Part shown: positions 1 through 30,584 of the stretch, in pieces
How the letters are laid out: each line of letters starts with the position of its first letter
Numbering within the stretch: position 1 is the stretch's first letter
Made by a program: the position numbers and the translations under genes
Origin: Candidatus Bathyarchaeota archaeon
GTDB taxonomy: Archaea; Thermoproteota; Bathyarchaeia; 40CM-2-53-6; RBG-13-38-9
Direction of reading: 5' to 3'
Length of the DNA: 41,609 nt
NCBI GenBank assembly: GCA_018396565.1
Contig: JAGTQO010000004.1
Location: 1 to 41,609 of the forward strand
The notes under the pieces: model-generated
What the model was told of the DNA's origin: nothing
The model's database searches: none
What the model saw: the letters and a program-made list of their open reading frames with translations, nothing else

Positions 1-631
1 AGGGCATCCCTATCCCATACAGGTTCAATAGCTGGTTCAGAGAGCGTCGTCGACGCAGGTTTGAGGTAGGCTTGTATGCTCAGGGTGAATGATGTTGACG
101 ATATCTTCAACGCAGCCATAGCACTGATGAACCAGCCTCTGCCGAAAGGGGATAGAGTAGGAATAATCAGCAATGCAGGTGGGTTGGCGGTCTTGGTGTC
201 AGACTGGTGCAGTAAGTTCGGCCTACAGATTCGTGTTGCCAAGTGAAGTTCAGAGAAAAATCAAAAATTTTCTGCCACCAATAGCTTCAACTTCAAACCC
301 TATAGATATGACTGGTGGGGCTGACTATGAATGTTACAGGAACGTGCTTGATACGATTCTGGCTGAGGACACGATAGATTCTGTAATATGCATATTCGTC
401 TCCCAAGGATTGGTTACGGCTGCGCAGCCTGCTAGGGCGGTCGTAGAAGTAGCTGACAGATACAGTAAACCTGTCCTAGCATTTTGGATGGGTGAGAGGA
501 GTACGAGGGAGGCCGTTGAAATTTTGAGGAGAGGCCGGATCCCATGTTATCCGTCACCCTCGAGGGTTGCCATGGCTGCGTCAACCATCGTATCTTATAG
601 CAGACTCAAGAAAACCCTAAATCAAACTTAA
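1..631 (+). pseudogene. C-terminal part of an ADP-forming acetyl-CoA synthetase alpha-like (CoA-ligase domain) paralog, disrupted by an in-frame TAG and a +1 frameshift
   Basis: Frame 1 from nt 1 reads RASLSHTGSIAGSESVVDAGLR*ACMLRVNDVDDIFNAAIALMNQPLPKGDRVGIISNAGGLAVLVSDWCSKFGLQI. This is collinear with the intact paralog at 8359..9750 (AAMSHTASLAADDAILDAALKQAGVIRVNNYMDLVNYTKAF...KVGVITPSGGLGVISADACQLLGLDL). TAG at 67-69 interrupts it and the frame ends at TGA 244-246. The homologous continuation (LPSEVQRKIKNFLPP..NPIDMTGGADYE..) lies in frame 2 (ORF 173..631). Confidence 0.55.
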
Positions 632-4038: not shown

Positions 4039-5409
4039 TCAAACGGTTGGAATATTACGTTTTCTCACCATCTCGTATATCTCGTTACACCACCATCTTT
4101 CAGGATTTATCTCTTCACCATCCGAAACCTCATCTAAATGTAGTAGTATGCGTCTGAGGGTTTTTCCTCCCCTTGCCGTAAGTCGCTTCCACAAAATTCT
4201 TGTGGTTGAGTTGAGTCTACTCCATGGGCAGACGCTGATGCATACTCCGCAGTTCGTCCCTCCAACAGCGAAGTAAGCTCTGCACCTCTCCTGATTATTT
4301 ATCCACCTGAGAGGTCCAACACTCTCTGAGATAGTCGGGGCGTCGACGTCATTCTTCTCAAGTCCTACGGTTCTCGGACCATGTGGAATCGCCTGGGCTG
4401 GACAGCGCCTTGAGCATTTTCTGCATTCCTCACAGAAATCGTGGATACCGAATGTTACGGGTCTATCTGTGGCGAGGGGGAGGTCAGTTATCACCTTTGC
4501 TAGCCTGATCCTTGGACCATACTCTGGACTGATTAGGCATCCACCTATCCTCCCATCCTCACCCAGACCTGCGTCTATAGCTATTGGAACATTCAAAGCA
4601 GTATCGTTGGAACTTGGTATGGCATTGTATCCCAATCCTCGGATAAACTCTGCAAGGGATGCTACTGTCTGTATTATGGTTCTGTATCCGTACATTAGTG
4701 TCCCAGCGAAAGCAACCGCTGTAGGTGCTGTTCTGATAGACTCGTAATCCATCTCAAACCCCAGCGATATAGCGTACCTCATCTCTTTCGGTATAACTTG
4801 GGTTCCGTCCTCGAGCTGGGTGGGTTCAACATAATCTTCATAACCTGACTCATCTGAGAAAACTATGGGTGGGTTTCTATGGGGTGAAGCCCTGTTATCG
4901 TACCAGTGTGAGTATACCCACCTCCTATCAAGTGTCGTAATCCTCACGATGGATGCTCCGAACCACATGGCAACCTTCTTGATCAGCCTGGACATCTTTG
5001 TTTCATCGGTAACCTCAAATCTCTCGGCTCCAACGCATCTGTATGTGGGTGTCCTCAAAGGGGTCCAAGATAAGAATCCCGAGTTAGGATAGTTGATGTC
5101 TGTACCGAAGCTTCTCGCCATCGTATATGCTGCATCTGCTAAGGCGTAGTCGAGTATAGTGTAGCCGGCTACACCTCTGGCTGCGAGTTTTTTCATATTC
5201 TCCTCTTGAATATCAAGCTTCTCTCTCAAGGCTTCATCCCAAAAAGGTCTTCCTATGGTGAGGTTATACTTCTGGTTGAACCTGGTGTATCCACTTTTAA
5301 CCTTATATGTTGGTTTATCCAATTCCTCGACGCCGATGAACCTCCTTAATGATCTCTGGAGGTTCAGGGTCCTATCGAAATGCCTCAACTTAGAATCTAG
5401 CGTCAACAT
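4039..5409 (-). CDS. Reductive dehalogenase (RdhA)-like Fe-S protein, cytoplasmic type
   Basis: The C-terminus has FCEECRKCSRRCPAQAI (CxxCxxCxxxCP) and CRAYFAVGGTNCGVCISVCPW (C-x10-C-x2-C-x3-CP), the two-cluster signature of RdhA. The ~455-aa size fits. The start was placed at Met32 of the ORF (MLTLDSK) to avoid overlap with nep1. Confidence 0.55.
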   Translation of the reverse strand: MLTLDSKLRHFDRTLNLQRSLRRFIGVEELDKPTYKVKSGYTRFNQKYNLTIGRPFWDEALREKLDIQEENMKKLAARGVAGYTILDYALADAAYTMARSFGTDINYPNSGFLSWTPLRTPTYRCVGAERFEVTDETKMSRLIKKVAMWFGASIVRITTLDRRWVYSHWYDNRASPHRNPPIVFSDESGYEDYVEPTQLEDGTQVIPKEMRYAISLGFEMDYESIRTAPTAVAFAGTLMYGYRTIIQTVASLAEFIRGLGYNAIPSSNDTALNVPIAIDAGLGEDGRIGGCLISPEYGPRIRLAKVITDLPLATDRPVTFGIHDFCEECRKCSRRCPAQAIPHGPRTVGLEKNDVDAPTISESVGPLRWINNQERCRAYFAVGGTNCGVCISVCPWSRLNSTTRILWKRLTARGGKTLRRILLHLDEVSDGEEINPERWWCNEIYEMVRKRNIPTV

Positions 5410-5479
5410 GCTGGATTCTCTCCTAAGGATCTTCGATCCCAATAACCCGGCATACAATACATTAAATGTAAAATCCACC

Positions 5480-6184
5480 TCACCTATTCTGAACAACCTC
5501 ATCAGCTCCGGTTACATCTATATATGCAAATATTAGCCAGGAAGTCACTGTCCAGCTGTCGAGTCCCGAACTGTATATTCTGAATGTCTTATCTAGGAGG
5601 CTGATGGTTTCCTTGGAGAAGTGGCCTCTGGGGAAACCCCCTACTAGAACAGCCGGCCTATCATGGCTCGCAATCAAACCTACAACATCTTTGATCCCTC
5701 TACTCTCTCCCCTCATCGATATCTCAACCTTCAATGTTGGATCTATGTTTCTGAGCAGCTCTTCAACCCCCATTCCTCTGATTTTCATTAAAGGTTCACC
5801 CTCTGGAGGTACCTGGCCAAACTCGTATAGTTGCTCCATTAAACCTTTGAATCTCTCGCTGTTTCTGGGAACTCTTACTTTTGGAGAGATGAATATGACT
5901 TCGTCATTTCTTGTATGTATATAGATCTTCAAGTTTCCAGTCAAGTTTAGGGGTGAGCTCAAGGCTGTCAGTAAGGTGATATGTATTATGTCTGGTCTAC
6001 CCCTTCTATGGGCATCCCTTAACCCCGCCATCGCTTGATGGTGGTAGGACCTGTCGAGTATGAGCTGCTCAGGCCTCTTACACCGCTTCCTAGCGTCCTT
6101 CACGATCGAAGGGTGATCTAATATCTCCCTTGGAACAGGCTCCAAAGCAGATTCGGCGAGAACTATGAATAGCAAGTCTGCCAC
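5480..6184 (-). CDS. nep1: rRNA small-subunit pseudouridine methyltransferase Nep1/Emg1
   Basis: LILDRSYHHQAM...RGRPDIIHITLL and the SPOUT-like C-terminus are typical of Nep1. The start codon is GTG. Confidence 0.8.
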   Translation of the reverse strand: MADLLFIVLAESALEPVPREILDHPSIVKDARKRCKRPEQLILDRSYHHQAMAGLRDAHRRGRPDIIHITLLTALSSPLNLTGNLKIYIHTRNDEVIFISPKVRVPRNSERFKGLMEQLYEFGQVPPEGEPLMKIRGMGVEELLRNIDPTLKVEISMRGESRGIKDVVGLIASHDRPAVLVGGFPRGHFSKETISLLDKTFRIYSSGLDSWTVTSWLIFAYIDVTGADEVVQNR

Positions 6185-8358: not shown

Positions 8359-9750
8359 CTAATCAGCTTCTCCCCTTATCTTCGAATATCTATACATCAC
8401 AGCCAGTGCTTGAGCAGCTTCCTCAGGTGAGTAATAGACTGGGATATTCTCCTTCTCAAGTATTGCTCTCATCTTCTCAACCAAAACCCAATCGCTTGAT
8501 GCGTAAGCGATTATGGGTTTGTCAGGATGTTTCCTTGAAGCCTCAGATATGAATCTGTGATCTTTTAATTCGAATCCTTCAGTAAACTGGAACCCTGCAA
8601 TTATGGCGTCGACGTTCTCATCCTCGAAAAGAGCCTCGATCCCGACTTTGTAAGCTTCATCAACCCCTATATATGTGACTGAAGGCCAGATATCGTAAGG
8701 GTTCCCAACCCTTATGAACGGTGGGCTGGCCTTTCTGAATCTTTCAAGGGTCTTCTCCGAGAGGTTTGCTAGGTCGAGGCCTAGAAGTTGGCATGCGTCT
8801 GCGCTTATTACGCCCAAGCCTCCGGAGGGCGTTATGACCCCTACTTTATTGCCTTTTGGAGGTTGCTGGAACACGAAGGCCTTAGTATAATTTACCAGGT
8901 CCATATAGTTATTGACCCTTATAACACCGGCCTGCTTAAGAGCCGCATCCAATATAGCATCGTCTGCTGCAAGTGAAGCCGTATGCGACATAGCAGCCTT
9001 AGAGCCTGCAGGTGTCCTCCCCGACTTCAATGCTAAGATAGGCTTCTTCTTTGACACTCTCTTGGCAACTTCCACGAATCGTCTACCGTCCTTCAAACCT
9101 TCGATATACATAGCTATGACCTTCGTGTGGGGGTCGCTCTCTAAATACTCTAGGGCGTCAGCATCGTCTACGTCACACTTGTTCCCTAATCCTATTATCC
9201 TACTTATCCCGAAATTCTCCCTAGTCACTATCCACCTGAAAGTTATTGATGCAAAGTTTCCAGTCTGAGCTATGTAGGCGGCTGATCCAGGATTATAGTC
9301 TACCTTGAAGAAGGTTGTTGAGAATCGTCCTGGAATGCTGACTATTCCAGTTGTATTCGGCCCAATGATCCTCATTCCATATTTTCGGCCAATCTCCACA
9401 ATCTCTTGCTGCATCTTAGCGCCTTTCTCATCTACCTCACTGAATCCTCCTGCAATTATAACCGTATGTTTTACTCCTTTCTCAGCCAGGTCCTTTACAA
9501 CGCCCACTACAGCCTCAGCGGGTACAAGTACCAATCCTACATCGACAGGTTCAGGTATGTCCTTGACGTTTGGATACGCCTTCAGCCCCTGAATCTCATT
9601 AGCTTTTGGATTTACTGGAAAGATCTTTCCTGGATACCCGAGCCTGATCAGGTTCTCAACTGCAACATAACCCAGTTTTCCAGGTGTGGTCGACGCTCCT
9701 ACGACAGCTACGCTTTTAGGGTTGAAGAATTTATCTAGACTCGTCTTCAT
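8359..9750 (-). CDS. acdA: ADP-forming acetyl-CoA synthetase, alpha (CoA-binding/CoA-ligase) subunit
   Basis: FFNPKSVAVVGAS...PGKLGY...VNPK (CoA-binding Rossmann fold) and MSHTASLA (phosphohistidine loop). The start was placed at MKTSLDKFF (ATG 9750), preceded by GGAG. Confidence 0.8.
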   Translation of the reverse strand: MKTSLDKFFNPKSVAVVGASTTPGKLGYVAVENLIRLGYPGKIFPVNPKANEIQGLKAYPNVKDIPEPVDVGLVLVPAEAVVGVVKDLAEKGVKHTVIIAGGFSEVDEKGAKMQQEIVEIGRKYGMRIIGPNTTGIVSIPGRFSTTFFKVDYNPGSAAYIAQTGNFASITFRWIVTRENFGISRIIGLGNKCDVDDADALEYLESDPHTKVIAMYIEGLKDGRRFVEVAKRVSKKKPILALKSGRTPAGSKAAMSHTASLAADDAILDAALKQAGVIRVNNYMDLVNYTKAFVFQQPPKGNKVGVITPSGGLGVISADACQLLGLDLANLSEKTLERFRKASPPFIRVGNPYDIWPSVTYIGVDEAYKVGIEALFEDENVDAIIAGFQFTEGFELKDHRFISEASRKHPDKPIIAYASSDWVLVEKMRAILEKENIPVYYSPEEAAQALAVMYRYSKIRGEAD

Positions 9751-9882
9751 ATCTCCACTTTCCCCCCTCAAAGAAATATTCAATTGATAAAAAGATTTTC
9801 TATTTCTAGGGTTAAACCCCATCTGGTCGTTTTAATAAGTTTTATTAGCCCTACCCTACATCGCCTATATAGGGTGTTAAGT

Positions 9883-10660: not shown

Positions 10661-11761
10661 CTAGTAGGAGTCAGCCATCTCCAGTTTAGCAGGTAAATAC
10701 TCGTCAACTATGTATGTTAAGCCATATCTACTGAATGCTTCCTGCTCAGCCTTCTTCTTTATCCTCATGAATGTCTCTATCTCTCTGCTCCAGATTTTAC
10801 CTTCATATCTTGGGTCCTTCCTCAATTCATGTAGCCTCTTGATGTCTAGCTCCGTCAATTTATCGCTTGGGAGCTTATACTCAACTATGTCTGAGGCCCA
10901 TACGCCGAACCACTTCGCATCCGGTGTGTTCAAGTCGCGGAGGTGTGCGGCGTTCGCTGAACCCGATATTATAACCATCGCAATATGCATACCCCAAGGG
11001 TCTCCGTCTGTGAATATGTATACAGGTAGGCCGAGTTCCTGATTCAACCTCCTAAGGAAGCTTCTTGTAGCCCTCGGCGCTTGGCCCGCTGTATGGACTA
11101 GGAGGGCCTTATGTTTGATGTGCACCCGCTCCTCTATGAATCTTGTGAAGAGGCCCCCCTTCTCTATTGCTATAACTTTATCCGCTTTACAGTCGATAAA
11201 CTCGGCCCCTGTCAGCGCAGGCCCTATCATCATGCCATCTGGGTGTGAGGTGAGGTTGAGTCTCCTTCCTTCATATCCTGGAATCGTATACTCTATGGTC
11301 AGGTCTCCGAATATTGCGCTCCTCTCTTCAGGGAAGACGTTGAAGTCTTCTCTTGAATATCCTATAACGGTCTCAAGGTCTGTGATGAGGTTGTCGCTCT
11401 CCTGCTGGTCTGTGAAGGACATCTCATAGGCTTGGGCTGAGTAGAAGACGTCTCTGAGGGTGCTGGTCTTACTCTGTCTGGTCAGGTCGTTGACGAACAT
11501 AGCTGTCCAAATCAGCTGGGTTAAGGGTCTGATATGTCTGATGTTTCTTGAGCTTCTTCTCACACTCCTGTTGCCCAATATGTACTGTCTGAGTTTCTGG
11601 TCGTATAGTATGTTGTTTATTGATCTGCTAGGCATCTTTATCCACGGAAACTCTCCCGCAATTATTTGGCGGTAGATCCTCTCACCTAGGTTTTGGAGGG
11701 ATGTAAGAACCTTCTCCTTCCTCTCTCTGACAGCTCCCCTTGAAGACTCATTCTTCGACAT
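10661..11761 (-). CDS. top6A: DNA topoisomerase VI subunit A (Spo11 family)
   Basis: LRDVFYSAQ (catalytic Tyr region). Toprim motifs IAIEKGG and FTDGDPWG. Overlaps the top6B C-terminal ORF by 14 nt. Confidence 0.95.
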   Translation of the reverse strand: MSKNESSRGAVRERKEKVLTSLQNLGERIYRQIIAGEFPWIKMPSRSINNILYDQKLRQYILGNRSVRRSSRNIRHIRPLTQLIWTAMFVNDLTRQSKTSTLRDVFYSAQAYEMSFTDQQESDNLITDLETVIGYSREDFNVFPEERSAIFGDLTIEYTIPGYEGRRLNLTSHPDGMMIGPALTGAEFIDCKADKVIAIEKGGLFTRFIEERVHIKHKALLVHTAGQAPRATRSFLRRLNQELGLPVYIFTDGDPWGMHIAMVIISGSANAAHLRDLNTPDAKWFGVWASDIVEYKLPSDKLTELDIKRLHELRKDPRYEGKIWSREIETFMRIKKKAEQEAFSRYGLTYIVDEYLPAKLEMADSY

Positions 11762-12605
11762 ATTTTGCGATGCTCCCTAAAAGTTTCTTGACGTCTGGAA
11801 TCTTCTCTCTATTCGCAAGTTTGGCTGAGAAGGATGCGATCTTTGGCAGATACTTTGAGAATACATCGAGCCTCCTCCTCTCTCTCTCCATATGGTGTTT
11901 CCTAGATAAAAATAGGGCAAGTTGCCTGGCGACCTCCCTCAGAGCGTTCAGAATCTCATGTTCAACCTCAGGCCTATCCGCTATGAACTCTTTCCCAACG
12001 GTCTTGTAGGGTATCTTGAGGCTGCATATGTGGATGAAGACCGCGATAGGTGTCTCTGGTGTGACTTTGTAGTGTCTCCAGTTCATCAACTCGTTCACAA
12101 CCTTATATGATATGTCGCTGGCCTCATCGAATAGAAGCGGTATCCTATTCGCGAATCTGTATAGTAGGATGCCGTCTGTCTTGAGTATGCCTCCGCCGTA
12201 GGCTACCCCAACCTCGACTATGAATGGAAATCCCGAATAAGCCGCCGGCTTCCTCTGGTGAACGGCAACAAATTCAGGGTTGAGCTCCTTCTTTATCCCT
12301 GTCTTCAGAAGGTCCTTCCCTAAAGGTGATAGGCAACTTGCGTCTGGAGGGAGGAATCCATCGTAATTCTTAAGGGCGTTCACGAGCCTAACGATCTCGT
12401 CTTGGGTGAGCCTCTTAGGATTCTTCTTGATTCCGACGTCCGCAAACTCTAGGAACCTCCTAGCTATCTTCTCGCCAACCCTCTGGAAATGCTTCTTCAT
12501 AAACTCCTTCATAGTCTTGGAGTCTGTAGCCTCAATCATCCTCTTCAGGGTCTCTATGTCTATTCCATGTGGATGGGGTGTAGTCTCACTTGGAGGCTTG
12601 GGCAT
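11748..12605 (-). CDS. top6B: DNA topoisomerase VI subunit B, C-terminal fragment (H2TH + transducer domains)
   Basis: MPKPPSETTPHPHGID...LTQDEIVRLVNALK...RKPAAYSGFPFIVEVGVAYGG is the H2TH/transducer part of Top6B. It is in the same reading frame as 12621..14486, separated from it by TGA-TAG plus 4 codons. No Shine-Dalgarno motif is evident upstream. Confidence 0.85.
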   Translation of the reverse strand: MPKPPSETTPHPHGIDIETLKRMIEATDSKTMKEFMKKHFQRVGEKIARRFLEFADVGIKKNPKRLTQDEIVRLVNALKNYDGFLPPDASCLSPLGKDLLKTGIKKELNPEFVAVHQRKPAAYSGFPFIVEVGVAYGGGILKTDGILLYRFANRIPLLFDEASDISYKVVNELMNWRHYKVTPETPIAVFIHICSLKIPYKTVGKEFIADRPEVEHEILNALREVARQLALFLSRKHHMERERRRLDVFSKYLPKIASFSAKLANREKIPDVKKLLGSIAKYVEE

Positions 12606-12620
12606 GATGCTTGTTGCCTA

Positions 12621-14486
12621 TCAGAACCTGTATAGTCTACCCCTGGGATCCACAAAAGTCAGGTTTGCATATGGGACGACTATGGCGGTCTCCTTCAAAT
12701 ATTCAAGGATCTTGGGCATGGCTCTTGAGTAATCGGCTTCAGTAGTGAACTCAACAATCGTTCCATGCCATCTCGACTTGTTGATGTGGACCCTATGTTT
12801 TGTAACTATAGGCTTGTTCCTCTGTATGTCCATCATCAAGACATACTCATGAATCTTGGATGTTCCTACACTTGAGATGACTCTCGTCTGGCCGTGGGTG
12901 GTTATCTGACCGTAGAGGACAGCCATCTTTCCGCCGAGGCCGAATGTTCCTCGGGTGTTATGGCAACAGACGCCTCCTAACCCGCATATGAAATTCTCTC
13001 TTCCAGGTATAGATAGATCGTAAGCGTAGGGTGAGGTTGACTTGACCCTTCTCAATTCGATTATCCTGCAGAACACGAAATCCGGATAATCAGCTGAAGT
13101 TTTGAAGGCCTCATTAGATTCTTTGGCTCCAACCTTCAAAGCCTCATCAAGATTCCGGCCTAACATTTTAATTACATACATTGTATTATTCTTATCCAGC
13201 TCCAATTCTTCGACTGTTGGGAAGACTCCTATAGACATCAACAGATACATCAAATCATAGGCTAGTTTTCGCCTTCGGGTTGGAAAAGATATATGCTCAC
13301 CATCAGCTACGTATCCTCCACCGTTGTATAGGCCTTCTATGAACGCCATCCTGAGCTCGGTGGGGATGTTGAATGCAATTTTAGGGATCTCCCCACTATT
13401 CACTCCTTCTATTTCAATACTGATCGAGGTGGCAGTTGACCCTGGATTGTTCAAAACGAGTCCAGACTCGAGGGAAAAGAAGATTTCAACTTGTTCTTCA
13501 ATATTTGGAGTATCTTTGAATGTTACGGCTAGTTCGTTTGACTGTTCAATTTGAGACCCATCTATTCTAATGGTTGGGCCCTTCTGGAGTTTTTCACCTC
13601 TGCCTACGACGTATCCTAGAGAACTCATGAATTCTTTCGTGAGTGGGATACGTGAATTCTTAGGCTCATCTTCTGCTCTATGATGGCTCAGGCATTTATA
13701 GATGTTTCTGGATGGGTTGCCAGGAAGATTCTCATGTTTATTTGAATTATCCCACTTTGCATGGGTTTTGAGCGGTTTCTCCGATTTTTCACCTTCAACT
13801 TTATATGTGTTGAAAGGTAAGGTTCTTGGAACTGCAACATACTCACCGACCTTCATCTGTTCAACATCTTTCAAGGCGATCCTGCCGTCTTTCATAATGA
13901 ATATGCTGTGGCCGCCGGTTACTCTGACCTTTCTGCCACCCTCCAGCCTAACCTCATATAGTGGCTCATCGACTGTGTGTCTGGAGACATGTGATATTCT
14001 GCCCCATGAGAACCTGAAGTTCTCAAGGTTGAAAGCTAAGGTCTCATAGCCTCTCTCATGAATATTCTTAATAATCTCGTTAGGTTTGAGGAATTGCTCG
14101 ACGAACCTTCCTATCTCGACAGATTCAATGTTCCGCCCATTTCTTATCAGTATCCTCTCGTTGTAGTCTACGCTCTGCCTGAGTCTGTATTTCGAGCCGA
14201 AGAGGACTTGGCCGAAAGCCGATGGTATAACCTCGGCTGGAAGGCCTGAACCGTTATCTTGGATCCTTATCTTGTAAACAGCGGGATCCGCTGTGGTCTC
14301 AGCCTGAGGGGAGACCCTTATGTAGATGTCTGGGAGGATGCCATGGATCTCACATGCATCCAGAGAGTTCTCAACCAACTCTCTAATTGTTGAGTATAAT
14401 GCCCTCGAAGGATTTGTGAAACCTGCGATATCCCTGTTCCTATAGAAGAAGTCTGACGGGGTTATCTCCTTGAACTCTTCAGCCAA
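12621..14486 (-). CDS. top6B: DNA topoisomerase VI subunit B, N-terminal GHKL ATPase fragment containing an intein
   Basis: Bergerat-fold motifs ELVENSLDA (N box) and QDNGSGL (G1). The G2 box is split: FGSKYRLRQ | intein | TRGTFGLGG. TTG start with GGTGA upstream. The ORF ends ..FVDPRGRLYRF TGA TAG. Confidence 0.9.
   Translation of the reverse strand: MAEEFKEITPSDFFYRNRDIAGFTNPSRALYSTIRELVENSLDACEIHGILPDIYIRVSPQAETTADPAVYKIRIQDNGSGLPAEVIPSAFGQVLFGSKYRLRQSVDYNERILIRNGRNIESVEIGRFVEQFLKPNEIIKNIHERGYETLAFNLENFRFSWGRISHVSRHTVDEPLYEVRLEGGRKVRVTGGHSIFIMKDGRIALKDVEQMKVGEYVAVPRTLPFNTYKVEGEKSEKPLKTHAKWDNSNKHENLPGNPSRNIYKCLSHHRAEDEPKNSRIPLTKEFMSSLGYVVGRGEKLQKGPTIRIDGSQIEQSNELAVTFKDTPNIEEQVEIFFSLESGLVLNNPGSTATSISIEIEGVNSGEIPKIAFNIPTELRMAFIEGLYNGGGYVADGEHISFPTRRRKLAYDLMYLLMSIGVFPTVEELELDKNNTMYVIKMLGRNLDEALKVGAKESNEAFKTSADYPDFVFCRIIELRRVKSTSPYAYDLSIPGRENFICGLGGVCCHNTRGTFGLGGKMAVLYGQITTHGQTRVISSVGTSKIHEYVLMMDIQRNKPIVTKHRVHINKSRWHGTIVEFTTEADYSRAMPKILEYLKETAIVVPYANLTFVDPRGRLYRF
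12957..14174 (-). mobile_element. Intein (406 aa, LAGLIDADG homing-endonuclease type) inserted in the Top6B ATP-lid/G2 motif
   Basis: Ser1 (SVDYNERILI, block A), block B RVTGGHSIFI (TxxH), LAGLIDADG-like LGYVVGRGE and FIEGLYNGGGYV, block F YAYDLSIPGRENFICG, and block G GVCCHN followed by Thr+1. Removing it restores ..RLRQ-TRGTFGLGG.., which fits the conserved Q(S/T)RG..G.G of Top6B. Confidence 0.85.
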
Positions 14487-14547
14487 AAACTTTCACCTAT
14501 CCATCGCATTCACATATTCAGGTCAGATGTGTGTTGTGTCTTGTAAA

Positions 14548-15135
14548 TTATTCCGGATGGATCCAAAGCTCAGTCATTCTCTTTTTCTTCTCCTCATGTC
14601 TGCGCCTTCTCAGAAACTTGTATACTGTTGAATGTTGCTTTCCCTCAATCAACATAGATATGGCTTCCCTAGCCGTGGATACGGCTTCATAGTCTCCAGT
14701 GATGGCTACGGTGTGGCCATATATTGACATGTCTGTTCCTGTGAGTTCCTCAAGCGCCCTTCTCATCTTCCCGTTTCGACCGATGATCCTTCCCTTCACC
14801 CTTGTTATGTCGCTGTCGCTCTTTCCAAAGATCTCCCTAAGATCTATTATGTCCAAGATGATATCGTCGCTCTTGAGTTTGAGGGCGTCTTCAGGTGAGA
14901 ATCCTCTCGCGATGGCTGTAACTGCGTCACGGGCCTTCAAGACGTTTGTGAGGTCGCCGTCCTGTGTTTGAGTTATCTCTATTGTTCCACTTTCGCTGTC
15001 TATATTCAGATTCACCTTGAAGATTCTTTCAATCCTATCTTTTACTTTCCCATCCTCCCCTATTATTACCCCTATTCTCTCTCTTGGAACCAATAGGCTG
15101 AACCTATTCTGCATCCTCACCAGCCACGCGTCCAT
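14548..15135 (-). CDS. KH-domain RNA-binding protein (archaeal Dim2/Pno1-like)
   Basis: Two KH modules (IGVIIGEDGKVKDRIE; GRIIGRNGKMRRALEE). It occupies the conserved aIF1A-Rio1-KH gene order. The true start may be Met8 (15114). Confidence 0.75.
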   Translation of the reverse strand: MDAWLVRMQNRFSLLVPRERIGVIIGEDGKVKDRIERIFKVNLNIDSESGTIEITQTQDGDLTNVLKARDAVTAIARGFSPEDALKLKSDDIILDIIDLREIFGKSDSDITRVKGRIIGRNGKMRRALEELTGTDMSIYGHTVAITGDYEAVSTAREAISMLIEGKQHSTVYKFLRRRRHEEKKKRMTELWIHPE

Positions 15136-15907
15136 ATAATTTTTCTGCAGATGGAATATCTAGACCCATCTTTGAGAAGAACTTATGAATGTTATATAGG
15201 TCTCTTCTGAGGAAGGTTCTCGCCATGGGGTGGTCTAGTTTGACTGCTTGGGAGACATCGAAGAAGACAGGCTTATCCTCCCATATCATGATGTTATATT
15301 CACTCAAGTCCCCATGTACGAGTCCTGCGATACGGTATAGTTTCTCGACGCCTTCAATTATTAGGTCGAAGGTTTTCCCAGGATCTTGCAAGGGGACCTC
15401 TTTGAGTAGGGGGGCTGGGGTACCATCCTCCCCTATGAACTCCATTATCAATATGTTCTTCTCCACCGCAACCCTTCTTGGAACTCTGACGCCTGCGTCC
15501 CAAGCCAACTTTAGATTCTCAAACTCCTTAAGGGCCCAACGGTATATGAGGGCTCTTGTGCTTCTGTCGATACTCTTGAACCTTGGGTCACCATCGATAT
15601 ATTGTAATATCCCCCTACGAAATTCAGATGAGACCGTGAGGTATATCTTGATCGCTAAGTCCTCTCCCCTCATACTCTTCCCCCAGTAGATCTTCGACTC
15701 CTTTCCAGCTTTGACTGCTCCGTAGACTTCCTTTAGATATCCTTTATTGAGTAGATTGTATAGGGCCATCAAGGTTGGTTTATCGAAGACTTCCTCTAAT
15801 ACTTCCATCTCTTCGCTTCTTTTTCTCCGCATCCTTCTCTCAAAATCATACCTCTTCTCTCTAAGCTTGAGCCTCTCCCTTGTCTTATCCTCTAAAAATT
15901 TACTCAA
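15104..15907 (-). CDS. rio1: RIO-type serine/threonine protein kinase (Rio1)
   Basis: GKESKIY...AIKIY...LVHGDLSEYNIM...FFDVSQAV are RIO kinase signatures. The ~266-aa size, without an N-terminal wHTH, fits Rio1. Confidence 0.85.
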   Translation of the reverse strand: MSKFLEDKTRERLKLREKRYDFERRMRRKRSEEMEVLEEVFDKPTLMALYNLLNKGYLKEVYGAVKAGKESKIYWGKSMRGEDLAIKIYLTVSSEFRRGILQYIDGDPRFKSIDRSTRALIYRWALKEFENLKLAWDAGVRVPRRVAVEKNILIMEFIGEDGTPAPLLKEVPLQDPGKTFDLIIEGVEKLYRIAGLVHGDLSEYNIMIWEDKPVFFDVSQAVKLDHPMARTFLRRDLYNIHKFFSKMGLDIPSAEKLYGRVAGEDAE

Positions 15908-15916
15908 TATCTCTCC

Positions 15917-19565: not shown

Positions 19566-20939
19566 CTAAACCCTTGGGGAAGATGCTATCTCCGAGCATA
19601 GGTATCTCAAGTTAGCTGAGGTAACCTTGACCCTCAATCTTTCACCTAGAAATCGTTCTCCCCCAACCATAACCTTCTTGTAGTTATGCGTTCTCCCAAA
19701 TGCGCTATTCCGCCTATTCTTCTCAATTACATTGATCTCCTCGACAACACCGATCATCCTAATGTTTCTTTCAAGGATAAACCTCGCTGCAAGGTTTGAA
19801 AGTCGACGTGACCTCGAGGCGACAACATTACTCTCCAACTGCTTCATCTTCGCCGCCTCCGTTCCAGGTCTCGGCGCATACTTTGAAATGTTTATAACAT
19901 CTGGACTTGTGGTCTCGATAAGCCTGACTGTAGACTCGAAGTCTTCCCAACTTTCCCCAGGGAAGCCGACTATCAGGTCTGTCGCTATGGAGATTGTTGG
20001 AAACTCTGAACGGAAAGTTTCGACTAGGGAAACGAAGTCTCTCACTGTATACCTTCTATTCATTAATCCCAATATTCTGTCGGAGCCAGACTGAACTGGG
20101 ATATGTAGAAACTTGTATACCTTAGGGCTTCTATAAGCCCTGATCAGTTCATAAACTATCTTTGAGGCATGGTCTGGATTCATCATACCGACCCTGACCT
20201 TGAACTCGCCGTCAATACTCACTATCTTCTCCAGAAGCGTTCCAAGATTGTATCCGTCAACTTTGTAGCATGCGGTGTCCTGGGCTGTTATCTGGACTTC
20301 AAGAGCACCTTCAGCTACGGCTTCCTCAACCCTTTCGACTATTTTATCCGGCTGATATGCGTAGAGTCGACCCCTAGCGAATCTTGTGCAGCAATAGGTG
20401 CATTCGCCAAGGCAACCTTCTGAGATAGGTATAATCTCCACGAGCCTATTGAGCCGCCTTTTAGGCAGTGAGGCCTTGTCCTGAGGCTTATTTGAAAATC
20501 TGATTTCTCCAACCGATCCCCCTGCAACCGCGTCAGCCACCTCAGCAACCTCAGATATTGATGTGGGGTCTATGATTCCGGAAAAGTCTGGGACAGTCTT
20601 TTTTATGCTGTCCAGATCTATTCTTGGCAGGCATCCAGATATTATGATGGGTTTCCTGTAGCGTCTCAACTTTCTGAGTCTCTCAAGCATCCTATCTTCA
20701 GTGACTTTCTTGACAGCACATGTATTTACGATAATGATAGTAGCTTCCTCAGGACTCTCCACCTCCAAATATCCAGATTTTTCTAGGATTGCTAACATTA
20801 TCTCCATATCGCTCTTGTTTGAGGCACACCCGTAAGTTTCAAAATACACAGTCTTGAAATCATTCTTGCAACATTCCTTACCGGCCTCCAGATAACTATC
20901 GGATCTTGGATATTGTTGGTGGATAGGAGGCTCCGCCAT
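19566..20939 (-). CDS. Radical-SAM methylthiotransferase, MiaB/MtaB (CDKAL1-like, archaeal type)
   Basis: N-terminal UPF0004 domain (ETYGCASN..NTCAV..SGC), radical-SAM motif CLGECTYC, and a C-terminal TRAM-like segment. The start ATG overlaps the upstream moaD-like stop (TAATG). Confidence 0.85.
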   Translation of the reverse strand: MAEPPIHQQYPRSDSYLEAGKECCKNDFKTVYFETYGCASNKSDMEIMLAILEKSGYLEVESPEEATIIIVNTCAVKKVTEDRMLERLRKLRRYRKPIIISGCLPRIDLDSIKKTVPDFSGIIDPTSISEVAEVADAVAGGSVGEIRFSNKPQDKASLPKRRLNRLVEIIPISEGCLGECTYCCTRFARGRLYAYQPDKIVERVEEAVAEGALEVQITAQDTACYKVDGYNLGTLLEKIVSIDGEFKVRVGMMNPDHASKIVYELIRAYRSPKVYKFLHIPVQSGSDRILGLMNRRYTVRDFVSLVETFRSEFPTISIATDLIVGFPGESWEDFESTVRLIETTSPDVINISKYAPRPGTEAAKMKQLESNVVASRSRRLSNLAARFILERNIRMIGVVEEINVIEKNRRNSAFGRTHNYKKVMVGGERFLGERLRVKVTSANLRYLCSEIASSPRV

Positions 20940-23628: not shown

Positions 23629-25320
23629 TTGAGGCAGCCGGCTATAATCCTTACGCTCCTCACCATTTTCGCAGTCTCATCTATCATCCCGCCAGCCAAC
23701 TCCGTGACATACGGGTATGTCTTGGGAGCGGAGAGAAAGGTTGTTATAAGCAAATATGGCTTAGCAACATTCACAGATGTTCTGTCGATCTTTAATAATG
23801 GGACTTCACCGATGAATACTCTGGAATTCATTTATCCTAAAGGTTACTCTTCAATGCTCGATTCAGTCGATGCTAGGGATGCGGATGGAAAGACTCTGAA
23901 GGTTGAGAGGGTCATCGACCAGTCCTCTATGATTTTAAGGATAAACCTAGAAACGCCTATCCAGCATGGATCAACATTCAAGGTCTATATGAAAATGGTT
24001 TTCTCAGGTCTCGTAACCTTCGACGGGATTGATTATAAGTTATCTCTACAGCCATACCCAAATATCCCCTTGAGCATGGCATCATGCAACATCACAGTAA
24101 TATTTCCAAAAGACACCACTCTGAAGAGTTGGCCGAACCAAACATTTACCAGAAGGACGGTCGATGAAAAGCCAGCCTTGATTGGAAGGACCAAGTCCAT
24201 GCAGCCACTCTCAAGCGGGGAGGTTTATATCAAGTTTGGAAGTGAGGGTTATGAGCTCCTGTCCTTCGAGTCGATTAGGAGGGAGGTTGTGATGGACCTG
24301 CTGGGCCGACTGACCTCCAAGGACACATATAAGATATTGAACTTGGGTAAGGAGCTCAGCTATGTGACTATGCCGTCACTCGAGGGCGTGAGGGAAGTGA
24401 AAGCCTATGATGCTACAGGTCCGATATCCGACAGAGTCAAGTTTAAGGATGATTCAATCCAGGTCACGCCGAGATTCGGAAAACTCAAGACGAACAGCTC
24501 ATTCTCATTCACCTTGGAATATGATCTGCCGATCAACGGATCGATTAGGAGGACCAGTTGGGATGGAGACTACAGGTTGACGTTGATGCTTGCTTCGCCC
24601 AGCGATTATGTTGCTAAGAATTATAGGATTCAAGTCGACCTACCCAAAGGGGTTGTCGTCAACCGCATCTCAGTGGAGGCCAATTCAACCTCGGTCCTTC
24701 CTGACGGTAGCTATGTATTAACCTATGAGTATTCTAAGGTCGTACCTGATAGAGAATACAGTCTGACTGTCGACTACAAGTATAAGCCATTCATGTATGC
24801 GATATATCCTGTCGAGTGGATTCTAGCATTAGAGGTCATAATCGGCGCTTTGGCTTCAGCAATAATTCTCAGAAAGCCACCAAGAATCATTTCCCCAACG
24901 TCTGTGGGGAAGATCAGAAGGTACATTGAACTTCAAGATGATAAGAGGGCTTTGAGGCTTGAGCTTGAGAGGAGAAGTGAAGAGTTGAGTAGAGGGGCTA
25001 TTACCAAACATGACTATCGAAGGGTGAGGAAGTCGCTGGATTCGAGGTTGAGCGAGATAAACAGATCCCTTGCAACATTGAAGAATGAGTTGAAGAGCAT
25101 CGACTCGAGATATTGGGAGATGGCGAATAGGCTCGAGAGGGCGGAGAGTGAGGTTGAAGCATTGAAGGCGAGTGAGAACCAGCTTACAAGCAGATATAGG
25201 AGTGGCCAATTGAGCAGGGAGGTCTACGAGTCGATGCTCAGCGACTTGAGGAAGAGGATTGGAAAGGCTGAAGAGATTATTGAAAGCATAATTGTGATGC
25301 TGAGGGAGGAGGCTAGGTGA
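23629..25320 (+). CDS. Type-I membrane glycoprotein: signal peptide, ~370-aa external domain (ribophorin I/Ost1-like?), one TM, coiled-coil cytoplasmic tail
   Basis: TTG start. Signal peptide MRQPAIILTLLTIFAVSSIIPPANS. Six N-x-S/T sequons. TM segment VEWILALEVIIGALASAIIL. The tail has two G-x-[IL]-[TS]-x-x-x-Y SHOCT-like repeats. The functional assignment is tentative (see findings). Confidence 0.6.
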   Translation: MRQPAIILTLLTIFAVSSIIPPANSVTYGYVLGAERKVVISKYGLATFTDVLSIFNNGTSPMNTLEFIYPKGYSSMLDSVDARDADGKTLKVERVIDQSSMILRINLETPIQHGSTFKVYMKMVFSGLVTFDGIDYKLSLQPYPNIPLSMASCNITVIFPKDTTLKSWPNQTFTRRTVDEKPALIGRTKSMQPLSSGEVYIKFGSEGYELLSFESIRREVVMDLLGRLTSKDTYKILNLGKELSYVTMPSLEGVREVKAYDATGPISDRVKFKDDSIQVTPRFGKLKTNSSFSFTLEYDLPINGSIRRTSWDGDYRLTLMLASPSDYVAKNYRIQVDLPKGVVVNRISVEANSTSVLPDGSYVLTYEYSKVVPDREYSLTVDYKYKPFMYAIYPVEWILALEVIIGALASAIILRKPPRIISPTSVGKIRRYIELQDDKRALRLELERRSEELSRGAITKHDYRRVRKSLDSRLSEINRSLATLKNELKSIDSRYWEMANRLERAESEVEALKASENQLTSRYRSGQLSREVYESMLSDLRKRIGKAEEIIESIIVMLREEAR

Positions 25321-25524: not shown

Positions 25525-26994
25525 TCACGGTGAGTACTTGAATGGGTGCTTGGCCCTCTCCTTATTCTCTAACAATTCTTCTATTGTGGGTCTACCTTCG
25601 AGAGCCCTCCTGATGGCGTGTCTCACAGCTTTATAATTGTTTATGTAGACCCTTCTCCTATCGACGGCTGAAGGATGTATGAACACGTTCACCATAATGA
25701 TCAGGCTCTCGACAGACCTTTCAGGGATCAGACCTTCAGCTACGCTGTCAACCACAGCCTTTGCGACAGCTGCTTGGGCTGGACCGTAGATTATGCTTGC
25801 CTGCCTCATGCTCTTTATGGTTACTGTAGGTATTATCAGTGTCGTCGGCTTCACTGCGAGGTTCGGTTCAAGAATCGCTATTAGAGGTTCATGTCCGGCT
25901 GATGGCGTCGCCTTGGCTTTGACGAAGGCCTCTCCAACAGGGCCGTCTTTGAGTCCGATGATGACCTCGACATGAGCGACCTCAGCCCCATCCCCGGCGA
26001 GGCCCTCCCCAACCCTTATCTCAGGGCCCTCCACCGGCACCATATCTTTGACAGCGAATTCGGAGGCGCCGCCTCGGACAGCTATCTCAGGGGCGAGAGC
26101 TCTACGCTCAATCTTCCCAACCCTCTCCAACTCTATTCTCAACTCCTCAAAGTCTTCGTATGAGAGTTCGCCTCCCACCGATAGTGGGAGCCTGACAGGG
26201 CCTACTTTGATATTCATCATGTTGAGGGCTGCCTTGGCTCCGACAGGCCCGCTCTTAACGATTATTCTACATATCTTCTGGATGCTTGTCTGAATCTTTT
26301 GGGCCTCAGCCATATTCTCCTTAAATCTGCGGTATAGTCTGAGCCAAATATCCGGTATGAAGTTTGCACTGGCAAGGATCATTCCTGATGCGCCTGCGGC
26401 TAGGGCTGGGAGAACAACTTCATCATGGCCGCAGAGAATCGAGAGTCTCGAACCTGTCTTCTCTATGACAGTAAGTATATACTTTATCTCGCCGCTACTG
26501 TCTTTTAAGCCTAATATATTCGGTATCTCAACGAGGTCTTCGACCATCTGCCAACTCAAGTTAACACCAGTGGCTTGTGGAATATTGTATAGGACTATTG
26601 GTAGATCAACCTTGTCCGCCAGGACCCTGTAATGTTCATATATACCCCTATCTGTAGGTTTATGGTAGTAGGGTGTGACAACCAAGGCGGCGTCTGCGCC
26701 TACATCCTTGGCGTGGCGTGTAAGTTCAACAGCTGCATTTGTGCTGCTGTGGCCTGTTCCCGCGATTACAGGAACCTTACCGTTTGCTTGGTCGACAACA
26801 TATTCTACGACCCTCTTACGCTCCTCAAGGGTGAGGTTCTGGCACTCCCCAGTCGTTCCACATGGAACCAGGCCGTTTACTCCACTCTCAACGGTGTAGT
26901 CTACAAGCCTCCTCAATCTGGCCTCATCGATTTCCTCCCCCGAATCTGTGAAGGGTGTGACGAGGGCGGGGAAGACTCCCTCCAGCCTCAACAT
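25525..26994 (-). CDS. Fusion protein: DapA/NAL-family class I aldolase (aa 1-~295) + formaldehyde-activating enzyme (Fae) domain (aa ~325-489)
   Basis: The N-terminal half has GTTGE, TPYY, YNIP and the Schiff-base Lys context ILGLKDSSG. The C-terminal half, VGEGLAGDGAEVAHVEVIIG...LIAILEPNLAVKPTTLI...VTIKSMRQASIIYGPAQAAVAKAVVDSVAEGLIP...VNVFIHP...KHPF, is collinear with Fae as I recall it from Methylobacterium extorquens. Confidence 0.8.
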   Translation of the reverse strand: MLRLEGVFPALVTPFTDSGEEIDEARLRRLVDYTVESGVNGLVPCGTTGECQNLTLEERKRVVEYVVDQANGKVPVIAGTGHSSTNAAVELTRHAKDVGADAALVVTPYYHKPTDRGIYEHYRVLADKVDLPIVLYNIPQATGVNLSWQMVEDLVEIPNILGLKDSSGEIKYILTVIEKTGSRLSILCGHDEVVLPALAAGASGMILASANFIPDIWLRLYRRFKENMAEAQKIQTSIQKICRIIVKSGPVGAKAALNMMNIKVGPVRLPLSVGGELSYEDFEELRIELERVGKIERRALAPEIAVRGGASEFAVKDMVPVEGPEIRVGEGLAGDGAEVAHVEVIIGLKDGPVGEAFVKAKATPSAGHEPLIAILEPNLAVKPTTLIIPTVTIKSMRQASIIYGPAQAAVAKAVVDSVAEGLIPERSVESLIIMVNVFIHPSAVDRRRVYINNYKAVRHAIRRALEGRPTIEELLENKERAKHPFKYSP

Positions 26995-28700: not shown

Positions 28701-30200
28701 ATGGAAATCCGTAGAACAGTCGAAGAGATCAATGAGAAGATTGAGAGGGGAGACGCCGTAGTTGTAACTGCTGAAGAGATGACTGAGATAGTTAAGAGTA
28801 AGGGGGTTCACGTTGCCGCTAGGGAGGTGGATGTGGTTACGACAGGTACATTCGGCGCAATGTGCAGTTCAGGGGTCTTCATCAACTTCGGCCATACAGA
28901 CCCTCCGATAAAGATGGATAGGGTCACATTGAACGGTGTGGAGGCATACCATGGGAACGCAGCGGTCGACGTATACTTGGGAGCTACGAAGATGCATCCT
29001 GAGAAGATGTTTGAGTATGGTGGGGGCCACGTCATCGAGGATCTGGTCTCAGGTAGGGAGATAGAGGTTGTGGCGTCAGGGTTCCAGACCGACTGTTACC
29101 CAAGAAAATCTGTGAGGACGACGATAACTATCGACGACCTCAACCAAGCTATCCTTTGCAACCCCCGAAACGGCTACCAGAGATATAACGCCGCGTCGAA
29201 CGGTAGGGATGAACTCATCTACACCTACATGGGTAAACTCCTTCCGAACTATGGGAACGCAACCTTCTCAGGGTCAGGGGAACTCAACCCACTGACAAAC
29301 GACCCTGACTACGAGACTATAGGGGTTGGAACCAGAATATTTCTAGGCGGAGGCATAGGATATGTAACAGGTCCGGGGACCCAGCATGATCCAGTGAACG
29401 GCTTCGGAACTCTCATGGTTCAGGGAGACCTCAAAAGGATGAGTCCAAGATTCTTGAGGGGAGGCAGCTTCACAAATTACGGCACAACCCTGTACGTCGG
29501 CCTCGGCATACCCATACCTGTGTTGAATGAAGGCATAGCGGAGAAGACAGGGATCAGTGACGAGGAGATAAAGACAAACCTTCTAGACTATGGAGTTCCA
29601 CGTAGGAGCAGGCCCATACTCAAGCAGACAGACTATGCGGAGCTCAAATCTGGCAAGATAGTGTTCAGAGACAGATCGATCCACGTCAGCTCCCTGTCAA
29701 GCCTGAAGATGGCAAGAGAGGTTGCGTCTACATTGAAGAGATGGATTGAAGAAGGCACATTCCTGCTCACAAATCCTCAGGAGAGGTTGCCATTGCAAGG
29801 AACCATGAAGCCCATGAAGGTTGTTGAGGAGACGCTTTTCGCAAGGCACATAATGGCGCCTGCAGTAACCTGCCATCCAGACGAAGATCTAGATACAATA
29901 GCAGCAAGAATCATTGAAGAGAAGGTCAATCATGTAGTGGTTGTGACACCTGAGAAGAAGCTGAGAGGCATCATCACCTCATTCGACATAACAAAGGCTG
30001 TTGCCTTGAAGGAGAAAGACCTCTCAAAGGTGATGACCCACCAAGTCATAACCGCATCGCCAGATGAGCCTATCGAGTCATGTGCAAAGAAGATGCAGAA
30101 GCACGACATATCAGCATTACCTGTCACCGACATCGACGGGATCGTCATCGGAATAGTTACGAGTGAAAGAATAAGTAGACTCTTCGGAGAGTACCGGTGA
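28701..30200 (+). CDS. COG1900 (DUF39) homocysteine-biosynthesis enzyme with two C-terminal CBS domains (MA1821-type)
   Basis: The N-terminal ~380-aa domain (VVTTGTFGAMCSSG...) is COG1900-like. The C-terminus has tandem CBS repeats (HIMAPAVTCHPDEDL...VVVV; VMTHQVITASPDEPI...ALPV). Confidence 0.8.
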   Translation: MEIRRTVEEINEKIERGDAVVVTAEEMTEIVKSKGVHVAAREVDVVTTGTFGAMCSSGVFINFGHTDPPIKMDRVTLNGVEAYHGNAAVDVYLGATKMHPEKMFEYGGGHVIEDLVSGREIEVVASGFQTDCYPRKSVRTTITIDDLNQAILCNPRNGYQRYNAASNGRDELIYTYMGKLLPNYGNATFSGSGELNPLTNDPDYETIGVGTRIFLGGGIGYVTGPGTQHDPVNGFGTLMVQGDLKRMSPRFLRGGSFTNYGTTLYVGLGIPIPVLNEGIAEKTGISDEEIKTNLLDYGVPRRSRPILKQTDYAELKSGKIVFRDRSIHVSSLSSLKMAREVASTLKRWIEEGTFLLTNPQERLPLQGTMKPMKVVEETLFARHIMAPAVTCHPDEDLDTIAARIIEEKVNHVVVVTPEKKLRGIITSFDITKAVALKEKDLSKVMTHQVITASPDEPIESCAKKMQKHDISALPVTDIDGIVIGIVTSERISRLFGEYR

Positions 30201-30584
30201 ATGAAGGTACATTTGAGTTTCGACAGGGAAAGGACTACGAAGCCGATAATCTCAACCATAATCCTGAGTACAGGAGTTCAAATAAACATTCTCAGGGCGA
30301 AAGTCGACGAGGCAGGTGGAGAGGTTCTCGTCGAGATACCTGACGCCGAAGCAGAGATGGTGATGGATGCTTTCAGGAGTATGGGTGTCAAAGTCCATGT
30401 TGGAAGACATGTGGAGATACTGAGGGAGAGATGCATAGACTGTGGACACTGCATCACAATATGTCCGGTCGAAGCAATATATGCTGAGAGTGACCTGACT
30501 GTGAAACTGAACCAAGAGAAATGCGTAGACTGCGGCGCATGCATAGACTCATGCCCAACAAGGGCAATAAGGGTAATGCAGTAG
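30201..30584 (+). CDS. NIL-domain + 2x[4Fe-4S] ferredoxin protein (MA1822-type)
   Basis: The ATG abuts the upstream TGA. The NIL-like N-terminus (KPIISTIILSTGVQINILRAKV) is followed by CIDCGHCITICP and CVDCGACIDSCP. Confidence 0.8.
   Translation: MKVHLSFDRERTTKPIISTIILSTGVQINILRAKVDEAGGEVLVEIPDAEAEMVMDAFRSMGVKVHVGRHVEILRERCIDCGHCITICPVEAIYAESDLTVKLNQEKCVDCGACIDSCPTRAIRVMQ

Follow-up and report, generated by a model that had tools for sequence, protein, structure and literature searches.

The top6AB locus examined here comes from a hot-spring Bathyarchaeia genome bin, and all of its pieces lie on the minus strand of a 41,609-nt stretch of DNA (the window). Three open reading frames make up the locus. 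The N-terminal top6B ORF (12621..14486, 621 aa) opens with a TTG start, carries an AGGTGA-like motif 7–12 nt 5' of that codon and encodes a first GHKL extein, an intein and a second GHKL extein before ending in LYRF-TGA (C-terminus ...FVDPRGRLYRF). It was deposited as MBS7625602.1, 'hypothetical protein KEJ51_00945'. The C-terminal top6B ORF (11748..12605, 285 aa, MBS7625601.1) starts at ATG 12605-12603 with the sequence MPKPPSETTPHPHGID and comprises the H2TH domain, the transducer and the C-terminal helix. Finally, top6A (10661..11761, 366 aa) is intact and overlaps the 3' end of the C-terminal top6B ORF by 14 nt; both its length and this overlap are identical in relatives. Top6B has its usual operon partner here. 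Pfam searches returned HATPase_c (PF02518) together with intein domains for the N-terminal ORF, Topo-VIb_trans (PF09239, E=1.6e-58) for the C-terminal ORF, and TP6A_N and Toprim for Top6A.

The two pieces together correspond to a complete Top6B. The intein-free sequence matched the Saccharolobus shibatae protein (2zbk_B) in phmmer with E=3e-131, and when the pieces were joined as N + XX + ATSI + C with the intein removed, the alignment to 2zbk_B was gapless at the junction, with the stops falling at P216-R217 and the Met at I222. The motifs ELVENSLDA, DNGSG and TRGTFGLGGK align once the intein is removed, supplying the N, G1 and G2 boxes of a GHKL/Bergerat fold, and the switch lysine in the C-terminal ORF (VGKEF) aligns to S. 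shibatae K427, as befits the H2TH and transducer portion of Top6B. Domain order (GHKL, H2TH, transducer, C-terminal helix), boxes, switch lysine and a position directly upstream of and overlapping top6A are all shared with canonical Topo VI B subunits (S. shibatae 2ZBK/1MU5; M. mazei 2Q2E), whereas the present locus stands apart in two ways: TGA-TAG interrupts it behind the last GHKL strand, and its ATP-lid loop holds an intein. The continuous polypeptide joining ATPase and transducer is missing from the deposited sequence but present in all relatives. In an AlphaFold2 model of an intein-free homologue (P0002, 84–86% identical), the break maps to E197-R198, right after the last GHKL strand (193-196); it opens a coil (197-218), and the first H2TH helix after it spans 219-228.

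Within the N-terminal ORF, extein 1 (14175..14486, 104 aa) contains the N-terminal strap, the N box (ELVENSLDA) and the G1 box (DNGSG) and runs to KYRLRQ, while extein 2 (12624..12956, 111 aa) extends from the G2 box/ATP lid to the last GHKL strand. Between them lies a class-1 intein with a LAGLIDADG domain (12957..14174, 406 aa; PF14890 E=8.8e-20, PF14528 E=6e-8), inserted in the loop adjoining the ATP lid, between KYRLRQ and TRGTFGLGG; the lid residues used for this placement were taken from PMC1616964. All class-1 splice features are present, namely S1 (SVDYNER), block B VTGGH, the C-terminal CCHN and Thr+1. Novikova et al. 2016 (PMC4760082) catalogued 15 Top6B inteins, under Euryarchaeota and 'other Archaea', which resemble the one found here in their location at a conserved ATPase motif, their canonical splice residues and their LAGLIDADG domain. 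Once spliced, the N-terminal product would be a 215-aa GHKL protein. The sequence-only reading had taken this ORF for a GHKL ATPase subunit; the GHKL assignment holds, but a simple subunit it is not, since the 406-aa intein inside it had been overlooked.

The two top6B ORFs are separated by a tandem stop (12618..12623, minus strand), TGA at 12623-12621 and TAG at 12620-12618, which replaces the Asp/Glu-Arg codons of all relatives. A 12-nt remnant of former coding sequence, GCA ACA AGC ATC (A-T-S-I, 12606..12617), follows and now belongs to neither polypeptide, leaving a gap of 15 nt (TAG plus remnant) between TGA and ATG 12605 and only six residues (DRATSI) outside both products. The deposited stop-bearing allele reads TTCTGATAGGCA across the lesion. 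Close relatives have TTC GAY AGG GCA (Phe-Asp-Arg-Ala) where the window has TTC TGA TAG GCA. Relative to 11 close contigs and a more distant one (L001), the lesion consists of +T and -G, six bases apart: T12623 is inserted after TTC, one G is deleted from an ancestral GGG run (now G12618-G12617), and the original reading frame is restored directly after TGA-TAG. Because GATAG read one base out of register supplies both stops, two single-base events are enough. We found no Shine-Dalgarno-like motif of at least 4 nt at -18..-3 of ATG 12605, and a TATA tetramer at -29..-26 is too weak to count. An imperfect hairpin, CTAT(A)CAG-GTT-CTGATAG (12618..12635, minus strand), arises only through the inserted T and is weak, being statistically no different from shuffles; a quasi-palindrome origin was rejected for this weakness and because it accounts for +T only. 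A mutation templated from a second copy was also rejected, as the 14-mer GTTCTGATAGGCAA has a single occurrence in the window. The tandem stop, the four sense codons and ATG 12605 that the sequence-only reading had described were confirmed at these coordinates on the minus strand, and its further observations, of collinear Top6B pieces broken at about the GHKL/H2TH boundary, of an intact top6A overlapping the C-terminal ORF and of a missing Shine-Dalgarno motif, were likewise borne out. Its contention that adjacent stops are hard to obtain by error or simple mutation did not survive, since +T and -G turn TTC GAT AGG GCA into TTC TGA TAG GCA.

Among 80 informative Bathyarchaeia loci (62–86% protein identity), none is split at the lesion site, and the same is true of 11 close contigs with 91–95% nucleotide identity and an identical intein. 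The start Met of the C-terminal ORF is conserved in-frame in 78 of the 80 relatives. Intact Top6B proteins of sister populations (MBS7650822.1, P0254; MEM3595640.1, P0121; and P0122 from JGI) are intein-containing and 912 aa long; they share with the window the intein site, the total length of 912 codons, the synteny, 91–95% DNA identity and near-identical exteins, and differ from it in reading TTC GAY AGG GCA (F-D-R-A) without stops. A length of about 506 aa corresponds to full-length Top6B after splicing. JGI metagenome contigs were scanned with a pattern tolerant of the wild type, of either single indel or of both, and only the wild type was found, with the split allele and the single-indel intermediates absent. 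Two groups of database proteins that look like recurrent splits were set aside: of the 285–294-aa Top6B 'C-pieces', the one that was traced (P0023) begins 70 nt away from the end of its contig, and the 415-aa Top6B calls on long contigs reflect where the start codon was placed in genes that are not interrupted. By sequence comparison, then, only one contig has the split, and the architecture is not a conserved one. The earlier suggestion of a naturally three-part Topo VI as an evolved architecture thus finds no support, every examined relative having one uninterrupted gene at this site, which is the first half of what the sequence-only reading had itself named as refuting it.

Overall, the TGA-TAG is a one-off lesion or an assembly error and not an evolved three-part enzyme. 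The reading that we favor, with a rough probability of 45%, is that the stops are not the organism's working allele and stem from a local consensus or assembly error, or from an unrepresentative variant, in an Illumina/SPAdes bin. The locus is an ordinary single-chain, intein-bearing top6B followed by top6A, with a private lesion in one deposited contig. Insertion of a T after TTC and loss of a G from the GGG run cause GAT-AGG (Asp-Arg) to be read as TGA-TAG. On the favored reading, the cell would make a standard A2B2 Topo VI, its B subunit matured by intein splicing. A length-preserving +1/-1 pair lacks a selective rationale, because +T alone splits top6B. Archaea without gyrase normally cannot dispense with Topo VI as their type II enzyme (see PMC11302465, PMC9348778), which makes a fixed inactivating lesion a priori unlikely. 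The sequence-only reading had listed a very recent lesion and had discounted assembly error; a recent lesion does fit the data, but so does the error.

The quality of the assembly bears on this reading from both sides. The likely source study (PMC8407382) assembled Illumina reads with metaSPAdes and re-assembled recruited reads. A sister bin (GCA_018396425.1) is 99.98% identical and contains stretches masked with N, and its contigs stop at 5739 and 14545 of the window, on either side of top6AB, leaving the lesion region uncovered; the masking and the flanking contig breaks suggest assembly trouble around the region. Exact-protein look-ups of Top6A, S19e and a 487-aa ORF call of an ACD gene were all unmatched in the sister bin, although the 487-aa call exceeds the 463-aa gene called in relatives and its miss may only reflect start-codon choice. 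On the other hand, there is no obvious mechanism by which Illumina/SPAdes would create a double indel, and the rest of the contig is clean. In 18–20 kb of alignment with relatives, every other indel lies between genes, preserves the frame or falls at the very 3' end of a gene, the Pfam coverage of the other genes in the window is full-length, and near-identical assemblies of related populations show zero coding indels pairwise, which indicates that indel errors are rare in such assemblies. These three observations speak against a generally error-prone assembly. We saw no strain-chimera signature near the junction.

Unlikely, but deserving of weight, is a real lesion that the organism tolerates. 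Topo VI would then be a very young enzyme of three polypeptides, with translation reinitiating at a pre-existing conserved Met, ATG 12605. Ribosomes would stop at TGA(-TAG) and reinitiate 15 nt downstream to make a 285-aa H2TH-transducer protein, which would bind Top6A by its C-terminal helix and dock the spliced 215-aa GHKL domain non-covalently. The break falls precisely in the coil that joins the last GHKL strand to the H2TH domain, only six residues are lost, and neither the switch lysine nor any catalytic motif is damaged. Selection is not relaxed, top6A is intact and keeps its 14-nt overlap, and the assembly is otherwise clean; moreover, if most of a living population carries this allele, a normally essential enzyme must still work. 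Archaeal termination-reinitiation keeps roughly 20–60% efficiency at +13/+14 nt (PMC10666635; PMC6728339), but longer spacing lowers it sharply, and in H. volcanii none is left at +22 nt (PMC10666635). The lesion is also unconserved, the junction shows no adaptive changes, the -G deletion is left without explanation, and the mechanical coupling from GHKL dimerization to the transducer normally passes through a covalent chain. That TGA-TAG is the true majority allele and that a working enzyme is assembled from a 215-aa GHKL protein, a 285-aa H2TH-transducer protein and Top6A is, if anything, slightly harder to credit.

We regard as more doubtful still a real and inactivating lesion, that is, a new top6B pseudogene or deleterious allele for which a second top6B or a gyrase elsewhere substitutes. 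Two premature stops do sever ATPase and transducer, the lesion is young and confined to this contig, and real pseudogenes occur in the genome, as shown by an ACD-like gene at 1..631. Decay is not apparent, however: window-specific nonsynonymous to synonymous substitutions number 2:15 in the top6B exteins and 1:14 in top6A, as compared with 2:16 on the sister branch. We found neither another stop or frameshift in the top6B pieces nor an excess of nonsynonymous change in either piece, the intein splice residues or top6A, so top6B lacks the further lesions and relaxed selection of a pseudogene. From these counts, the lesion, if inactivating, would take up under about 15% of what is a short branch. 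The 41.6-kb contig holds no other type II topoisomerase gene and, to our knowledge, Topo VI has been lost only in gyrase-reliant lineages. Very improbable indeed is that the stops are decoded or bypassed to yield one full-length Top6B, whether by reassignment, Sec/Pyl insertion, double readthrough, +1/-1 frameshifting, hopping or an mRNA intron. Both pieces share one frame and the +1 frame over the site still reads GAT AGG (Asp-Arg), but TGA (19), TAG (16) and TAA (8) end ordinary ORFs in the window, and its only other in-frame stop belongs to a gene that also has frameshifts. A programmed +1 shift would meet a TAG 20 codons on and would require a second, -1 shift on the non-slippery AGG to TAG. 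No take-off/landing codon pair is present for translational bypass, and gapless collinearity with homologues leaves a bulge-helix-bulge intron nothing to excise.

Split chains that assemble into active enzymes are known from phage T4 topoisomerase II (gp39, gp60, gp52) and from Nanoarchaeum equitans reverse gyrase. These splits are fixed, conserved and equipped with their own translation signals, and that of T4 lies elsewhere in the chain, in a type IIA enzyme. In contrast, the split described here is private to one contig, shows no clear start signal of its own and lacks the conservation in related genomes (0/80 Bathyarchaeia loci, 0/11 close contigs) that marks an evolved split. Archaeal termination-reinitiation pairs have native overlaps of 4 or 1 nt (Huber et al. 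2019, PMC6728339; PMC10666635). The present ORFs resemble them in a close stop and start on one mRNA and in the missing Shine-Dalgarno motif, but their spacing is +15 nt, a distance that already costs much of the efficiency (PMC10666635). The earlier remark that no split Top6B has been characterized agrees with the literature that we searched, which contains none. A split that proved real and functional would give the first type IIB topoisomerase with ATPase and transducer as separate chains, and would inform the question of how the DNA gate is reached by the ATP-driven closure of the clamp. It would represent a newborn gene fission at a domain boundary, caught very soon after arising, and a natural experiment in which the covalent ATPase-transducer link is dispensable in a type IIB topoisomerase. 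On present evidence, the locus serves chiefly as a caution: two single-base indels can put a tandem stop into an essential gene in a binned genome, such a stop is no evidence for a new enzyme architecture when relatives do not share it, and the resulting pieces stand in GenBank as two separate proteins, of which one is labelled 'hypothetical'.

Finally, the ACD-like gene is the sole other disrupted gene of the window. It contains an in-frame TAG and a frameshift, both also found in the sister bin, and this reproduction indicates that its disruption is real.

The window is an entire GenBank contig of 41,609 bp with locus tags KEJ51_. On its minus strand, top6B is divided into two in-frame ORFs, which GenBank lists as separate proteins (MBS7625601.1 and MBS7625602.1). 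The N-terminal ORF (621 aa) extends from TTG 14486 to TGA 12623-12621 and ends in ...FVDPRGRLYRF. A second stop (TAG, 12620-12618) and the codons GCA ACA AGC ATC follow, and the C-terminal ORF (285 aa, opening with (M)PKPPSETTPHPHGIDIETLK) runs from ATG 12605 to 11748. The position and sequence of the tandem stop therefore match those in the sequence-only reading, which was also right that top6A downstream (10661..11761, minus strand) is intact and overlaps the C-terminal ORF, by 14 nt, and that ATG 12605 lacks an upstream Shine-Dalgarno motif. The Pfam domains are HATPase_c for the N-terminal piece and Topo-VIb_trans for the C-terminal piece (E=1.6e-58). When the intein-free N-terminal piece, two unknown residues, ATSI and the C-terminal piece were concatenated and aligned to full-length Saccharolobus shibatae Top6B (2zbk_B), the pieces proved collinear, as had been proposed, with no gap at the junction (E=3e-131). 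The tandem stops correspond to P216-R217 and the methionine of the C-terminal piece to I222; boxes N, G1 and G2 are conserved, as is the switch lysine. The AlphaFold2 structure predicted for P0002, a close homologue that lacks the intein, has a mean pLDDT of 80 and places the break immediately past the last GHKL strand, at the start of a coil of ~20 residues that precedes the first H2TH helix. Model and alignment thus agree with its earlier placement at about the GHKL/H2TH boundary.

The N-terminal ORF also contains Intein_splicing and LAGLIDADG_3 domains, overlooked in the sequence-only reading. These belong to a 406-aa LAGLIDADG intein (12957..14174, minus strand) that has Ser1, TGGH as block B, HN at its C-terminus and Thr+1. 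Its insertion site, KYRLRQ|TRGTFGLGG, lies in the loop beside the ATP lid (lid residues from PMC1616964). Top6B inteins have been catalogued earlier (PMC4760082). None was found in 79 GTDB Bathyarchaeia representatives, and the carriers form a small hot-spring clade comprising 11 close contigs and the more distant proteins P0123 and P0124, in which the endonuclease region is larger or divergent.

The source organism is itself a member of Bathyarchaeia from a hot spring. We examined 81 related loci (79 informative GTDB species representatives, one uninformative representative and one JGI contig), all of them without the intein. The junction was uninterrupted in 80/80 loci covering it, reading F-[D/E/other]-R-A-T-x-x-M. 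The start methionine of the C-terminal piece is ATG in 78 of these 80 loci, while one has GTG and another a locally divergent Asn codon; it is thus older than any split. A second protein search recovered the true sister group, whose Top6B proteins (908-994 aa) carry the same intein and are all continuous; two are 86-92% identical to the N-terminal ORF, three read LYRF-DR-ATSI/ATNT-MPKPP, and the most distant, P0124, reads LYKF-ER-ATRE-MPKPP. Likewise, in eleven distinct sister-population contigs from NCBI bins, JGI metagenomes and Logan assemblies (91-95% DNA identity to the window, identical gene order), top6B has 912 codons or is truncated by the contig end. A search for the same split among relatives had been proposed, and every relative covering the junction was uninterrupted; the suggested naturally three-part Topo VI did not hold up against these loci and sister contigs. 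The split is instead a private, very young lesion. Several short 'Top6B' database entries (P0094, P0095 and P0090; 415-436 aa, on long contigs) start at internal GTG or TTG codons; their underlying genes are uninterrupted, making them gene-calling artefacts rather than splits.

At the DNA level the junction reads GGTTC-GAYAGGGCAAC in relatives versus GGTTCTGATAGG-CAAC in the window; the deposited and wild-type alleles are TTCTGATAGGCA and TTCGATAGGGCA, respectively. The window has gained a T after TTC and lost a G from the GGG run, and the intervening GATAG pentamer is now read one base late, as T-GA-TAG. Judging from this comparison, a pair of single-base events, or a single complex one, would account for both stops and for restoration of the frame; substitutions alone would require five changes to give TGA-TAG. 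Gain of this T also creates a short and imperfect hairpin, CTAT(A)CAG-GTT-CTGATAG, the kind of change produced by quasi-palindrome template switching. We rejected this origin, as the hairpin is weak (indistinguishable from shuffles) and the lost G is left unexplained.

Substitutions specific to the window were counted against sister branch L082, using L083 as outgroup. Nonsynonymous to synonymous changes were 2:15 in the top6B exteins, 1:14 in top6A and 6:10 in the intein; the exteins gave 2:16 on the L082 branch. If neutral changes are about three-quarters nonsynonymous, a neutral phase would occupy at most roughly 15% of an already short branch. No further stops or frameshifts were found in either top6B piece, and by these counts top6B is not decaying.

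The assembly is mostly not sloppy: in the 18-20 kb that align to relatives, all other indels lie between genes, have a length divisible by three or fall at the extreme 3' end of a gene, the remaining ORFs give full-length Pfam matches, and no coding indels separate near-identical assemblies of related populations. The sole other single-base indel touching coding sequence lies in the last few codons of a MiaB-like radical SAM gene (19566..19575, minus strand; compared with 94-95% identical relatives), whose product has 471 aa in the window versus 457-458 aa in relatives. Only one further gene is disrupted, an acyl-CoA synthetase (NDP-forming)-like pseudogene at 1..631 (plus strand; 3433..4847 in L087), which is a paralogue of the intact gene at 8359..9822. 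It contains a TAG in frame at 67-69 and shifts frame near 230-250. Both lesions recur in sister bin GCA_018396425.1, where a further frameshift lies upstream, beyond the edge of the window, so this pseudogene is real. That bin overlaps the window at 1-5739 and 14545-25135 (contigs L087 and L095) with 99.98% identity, the rest being N runs of ~40-55 nt; the two bins may represent one population binned or sampled twice. Its contigs end at 5739 and 14545, on both sides of top6AB, which suggests that this region is hard to assemble. They lack the junction and give no independent view of the lesion, and searching for exact matches to Top6A, S19e and the acyl-CoA synthetase-like ORF yielded nothing more. 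From the accession series and isolate names, the source study is probably Qi et al. 2021 (PMC8407382; Illumina, metaSPAdes/SPAdes --careful).

Our leading reading, at somewhat below even odds (roughly 0.45), is a consensus error or an unrepresentative allele. It draws on the absence of any conservation and on how seldom a lesion becomes fixed in a gene that is normally essential; an assembly this clean, on the other hand, argues against a simple error. A genuine, tolerated split is rather unlikely. The N-terminal precursor would splice to a 215-aa GHKL domain, and the C-terminal piece would start at ATG 12605, 15 nt past the TGA. The efficiency of termination-reinitiation in Haloferax volcanii drops by ~60% at a spacing of +13 nt, and at +22 nt the process no longer occurs (PMC10666635), so some C-terminal piece could plausibly be made. 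Six residues (DRATSI) would be missing from both chains, and the GHKL and transducer chains would need to associate non-covalently. The added T alone would already split top6B, leaving the lost G without a role in this model. Our literature search found no published split Top6B.

Inactivation backed up elsewhere in the genome, weighed by the same considerations, is unlikely. Recoding of the stops is very improbable, as TGA, TAG and TAA all terminate ordinary ORFs in the window (19, 16 and 8, respectively) and the genetic code is therefore standard. A +1 frameshift would read Asp-Arg and then stop after 20 codons, requiring a second shift, at codons that are non-slippery. An intron or ribosomal hop is unnecessary, since nothing is inserted at the junction.

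Elsewhere in the window, a 487-aa reductive dehalogenase-like protein with a double 4Fe-4S domain (4039..5502, minus strand) adjoins an EMG1/Nep1 methyltransferase gene. At 28701..30584 (plus strand), a ferredoxin with a NIL domain comes directly after a homocysteine-biosynthesis enzyme (HcyBio and two CBS domains), in what looks like the archaeal sulfur-incorporation gene pair. In a single 489-aa ORF (25525..26994, minus strand), a DHDPS-family domain (E=6e-82) and a domain of formaldehyde-activating enzyme (Fae, E=2e-62) occur together, both of them full. Finally, a 563-aa ORF (23629..25320, plus strand) matches Ribophorin I (PF04597, E=3.8e-12), a eukaryote-type oligosaccharyltransferase-subunit domain, here in a Bathyarchaeia genome.
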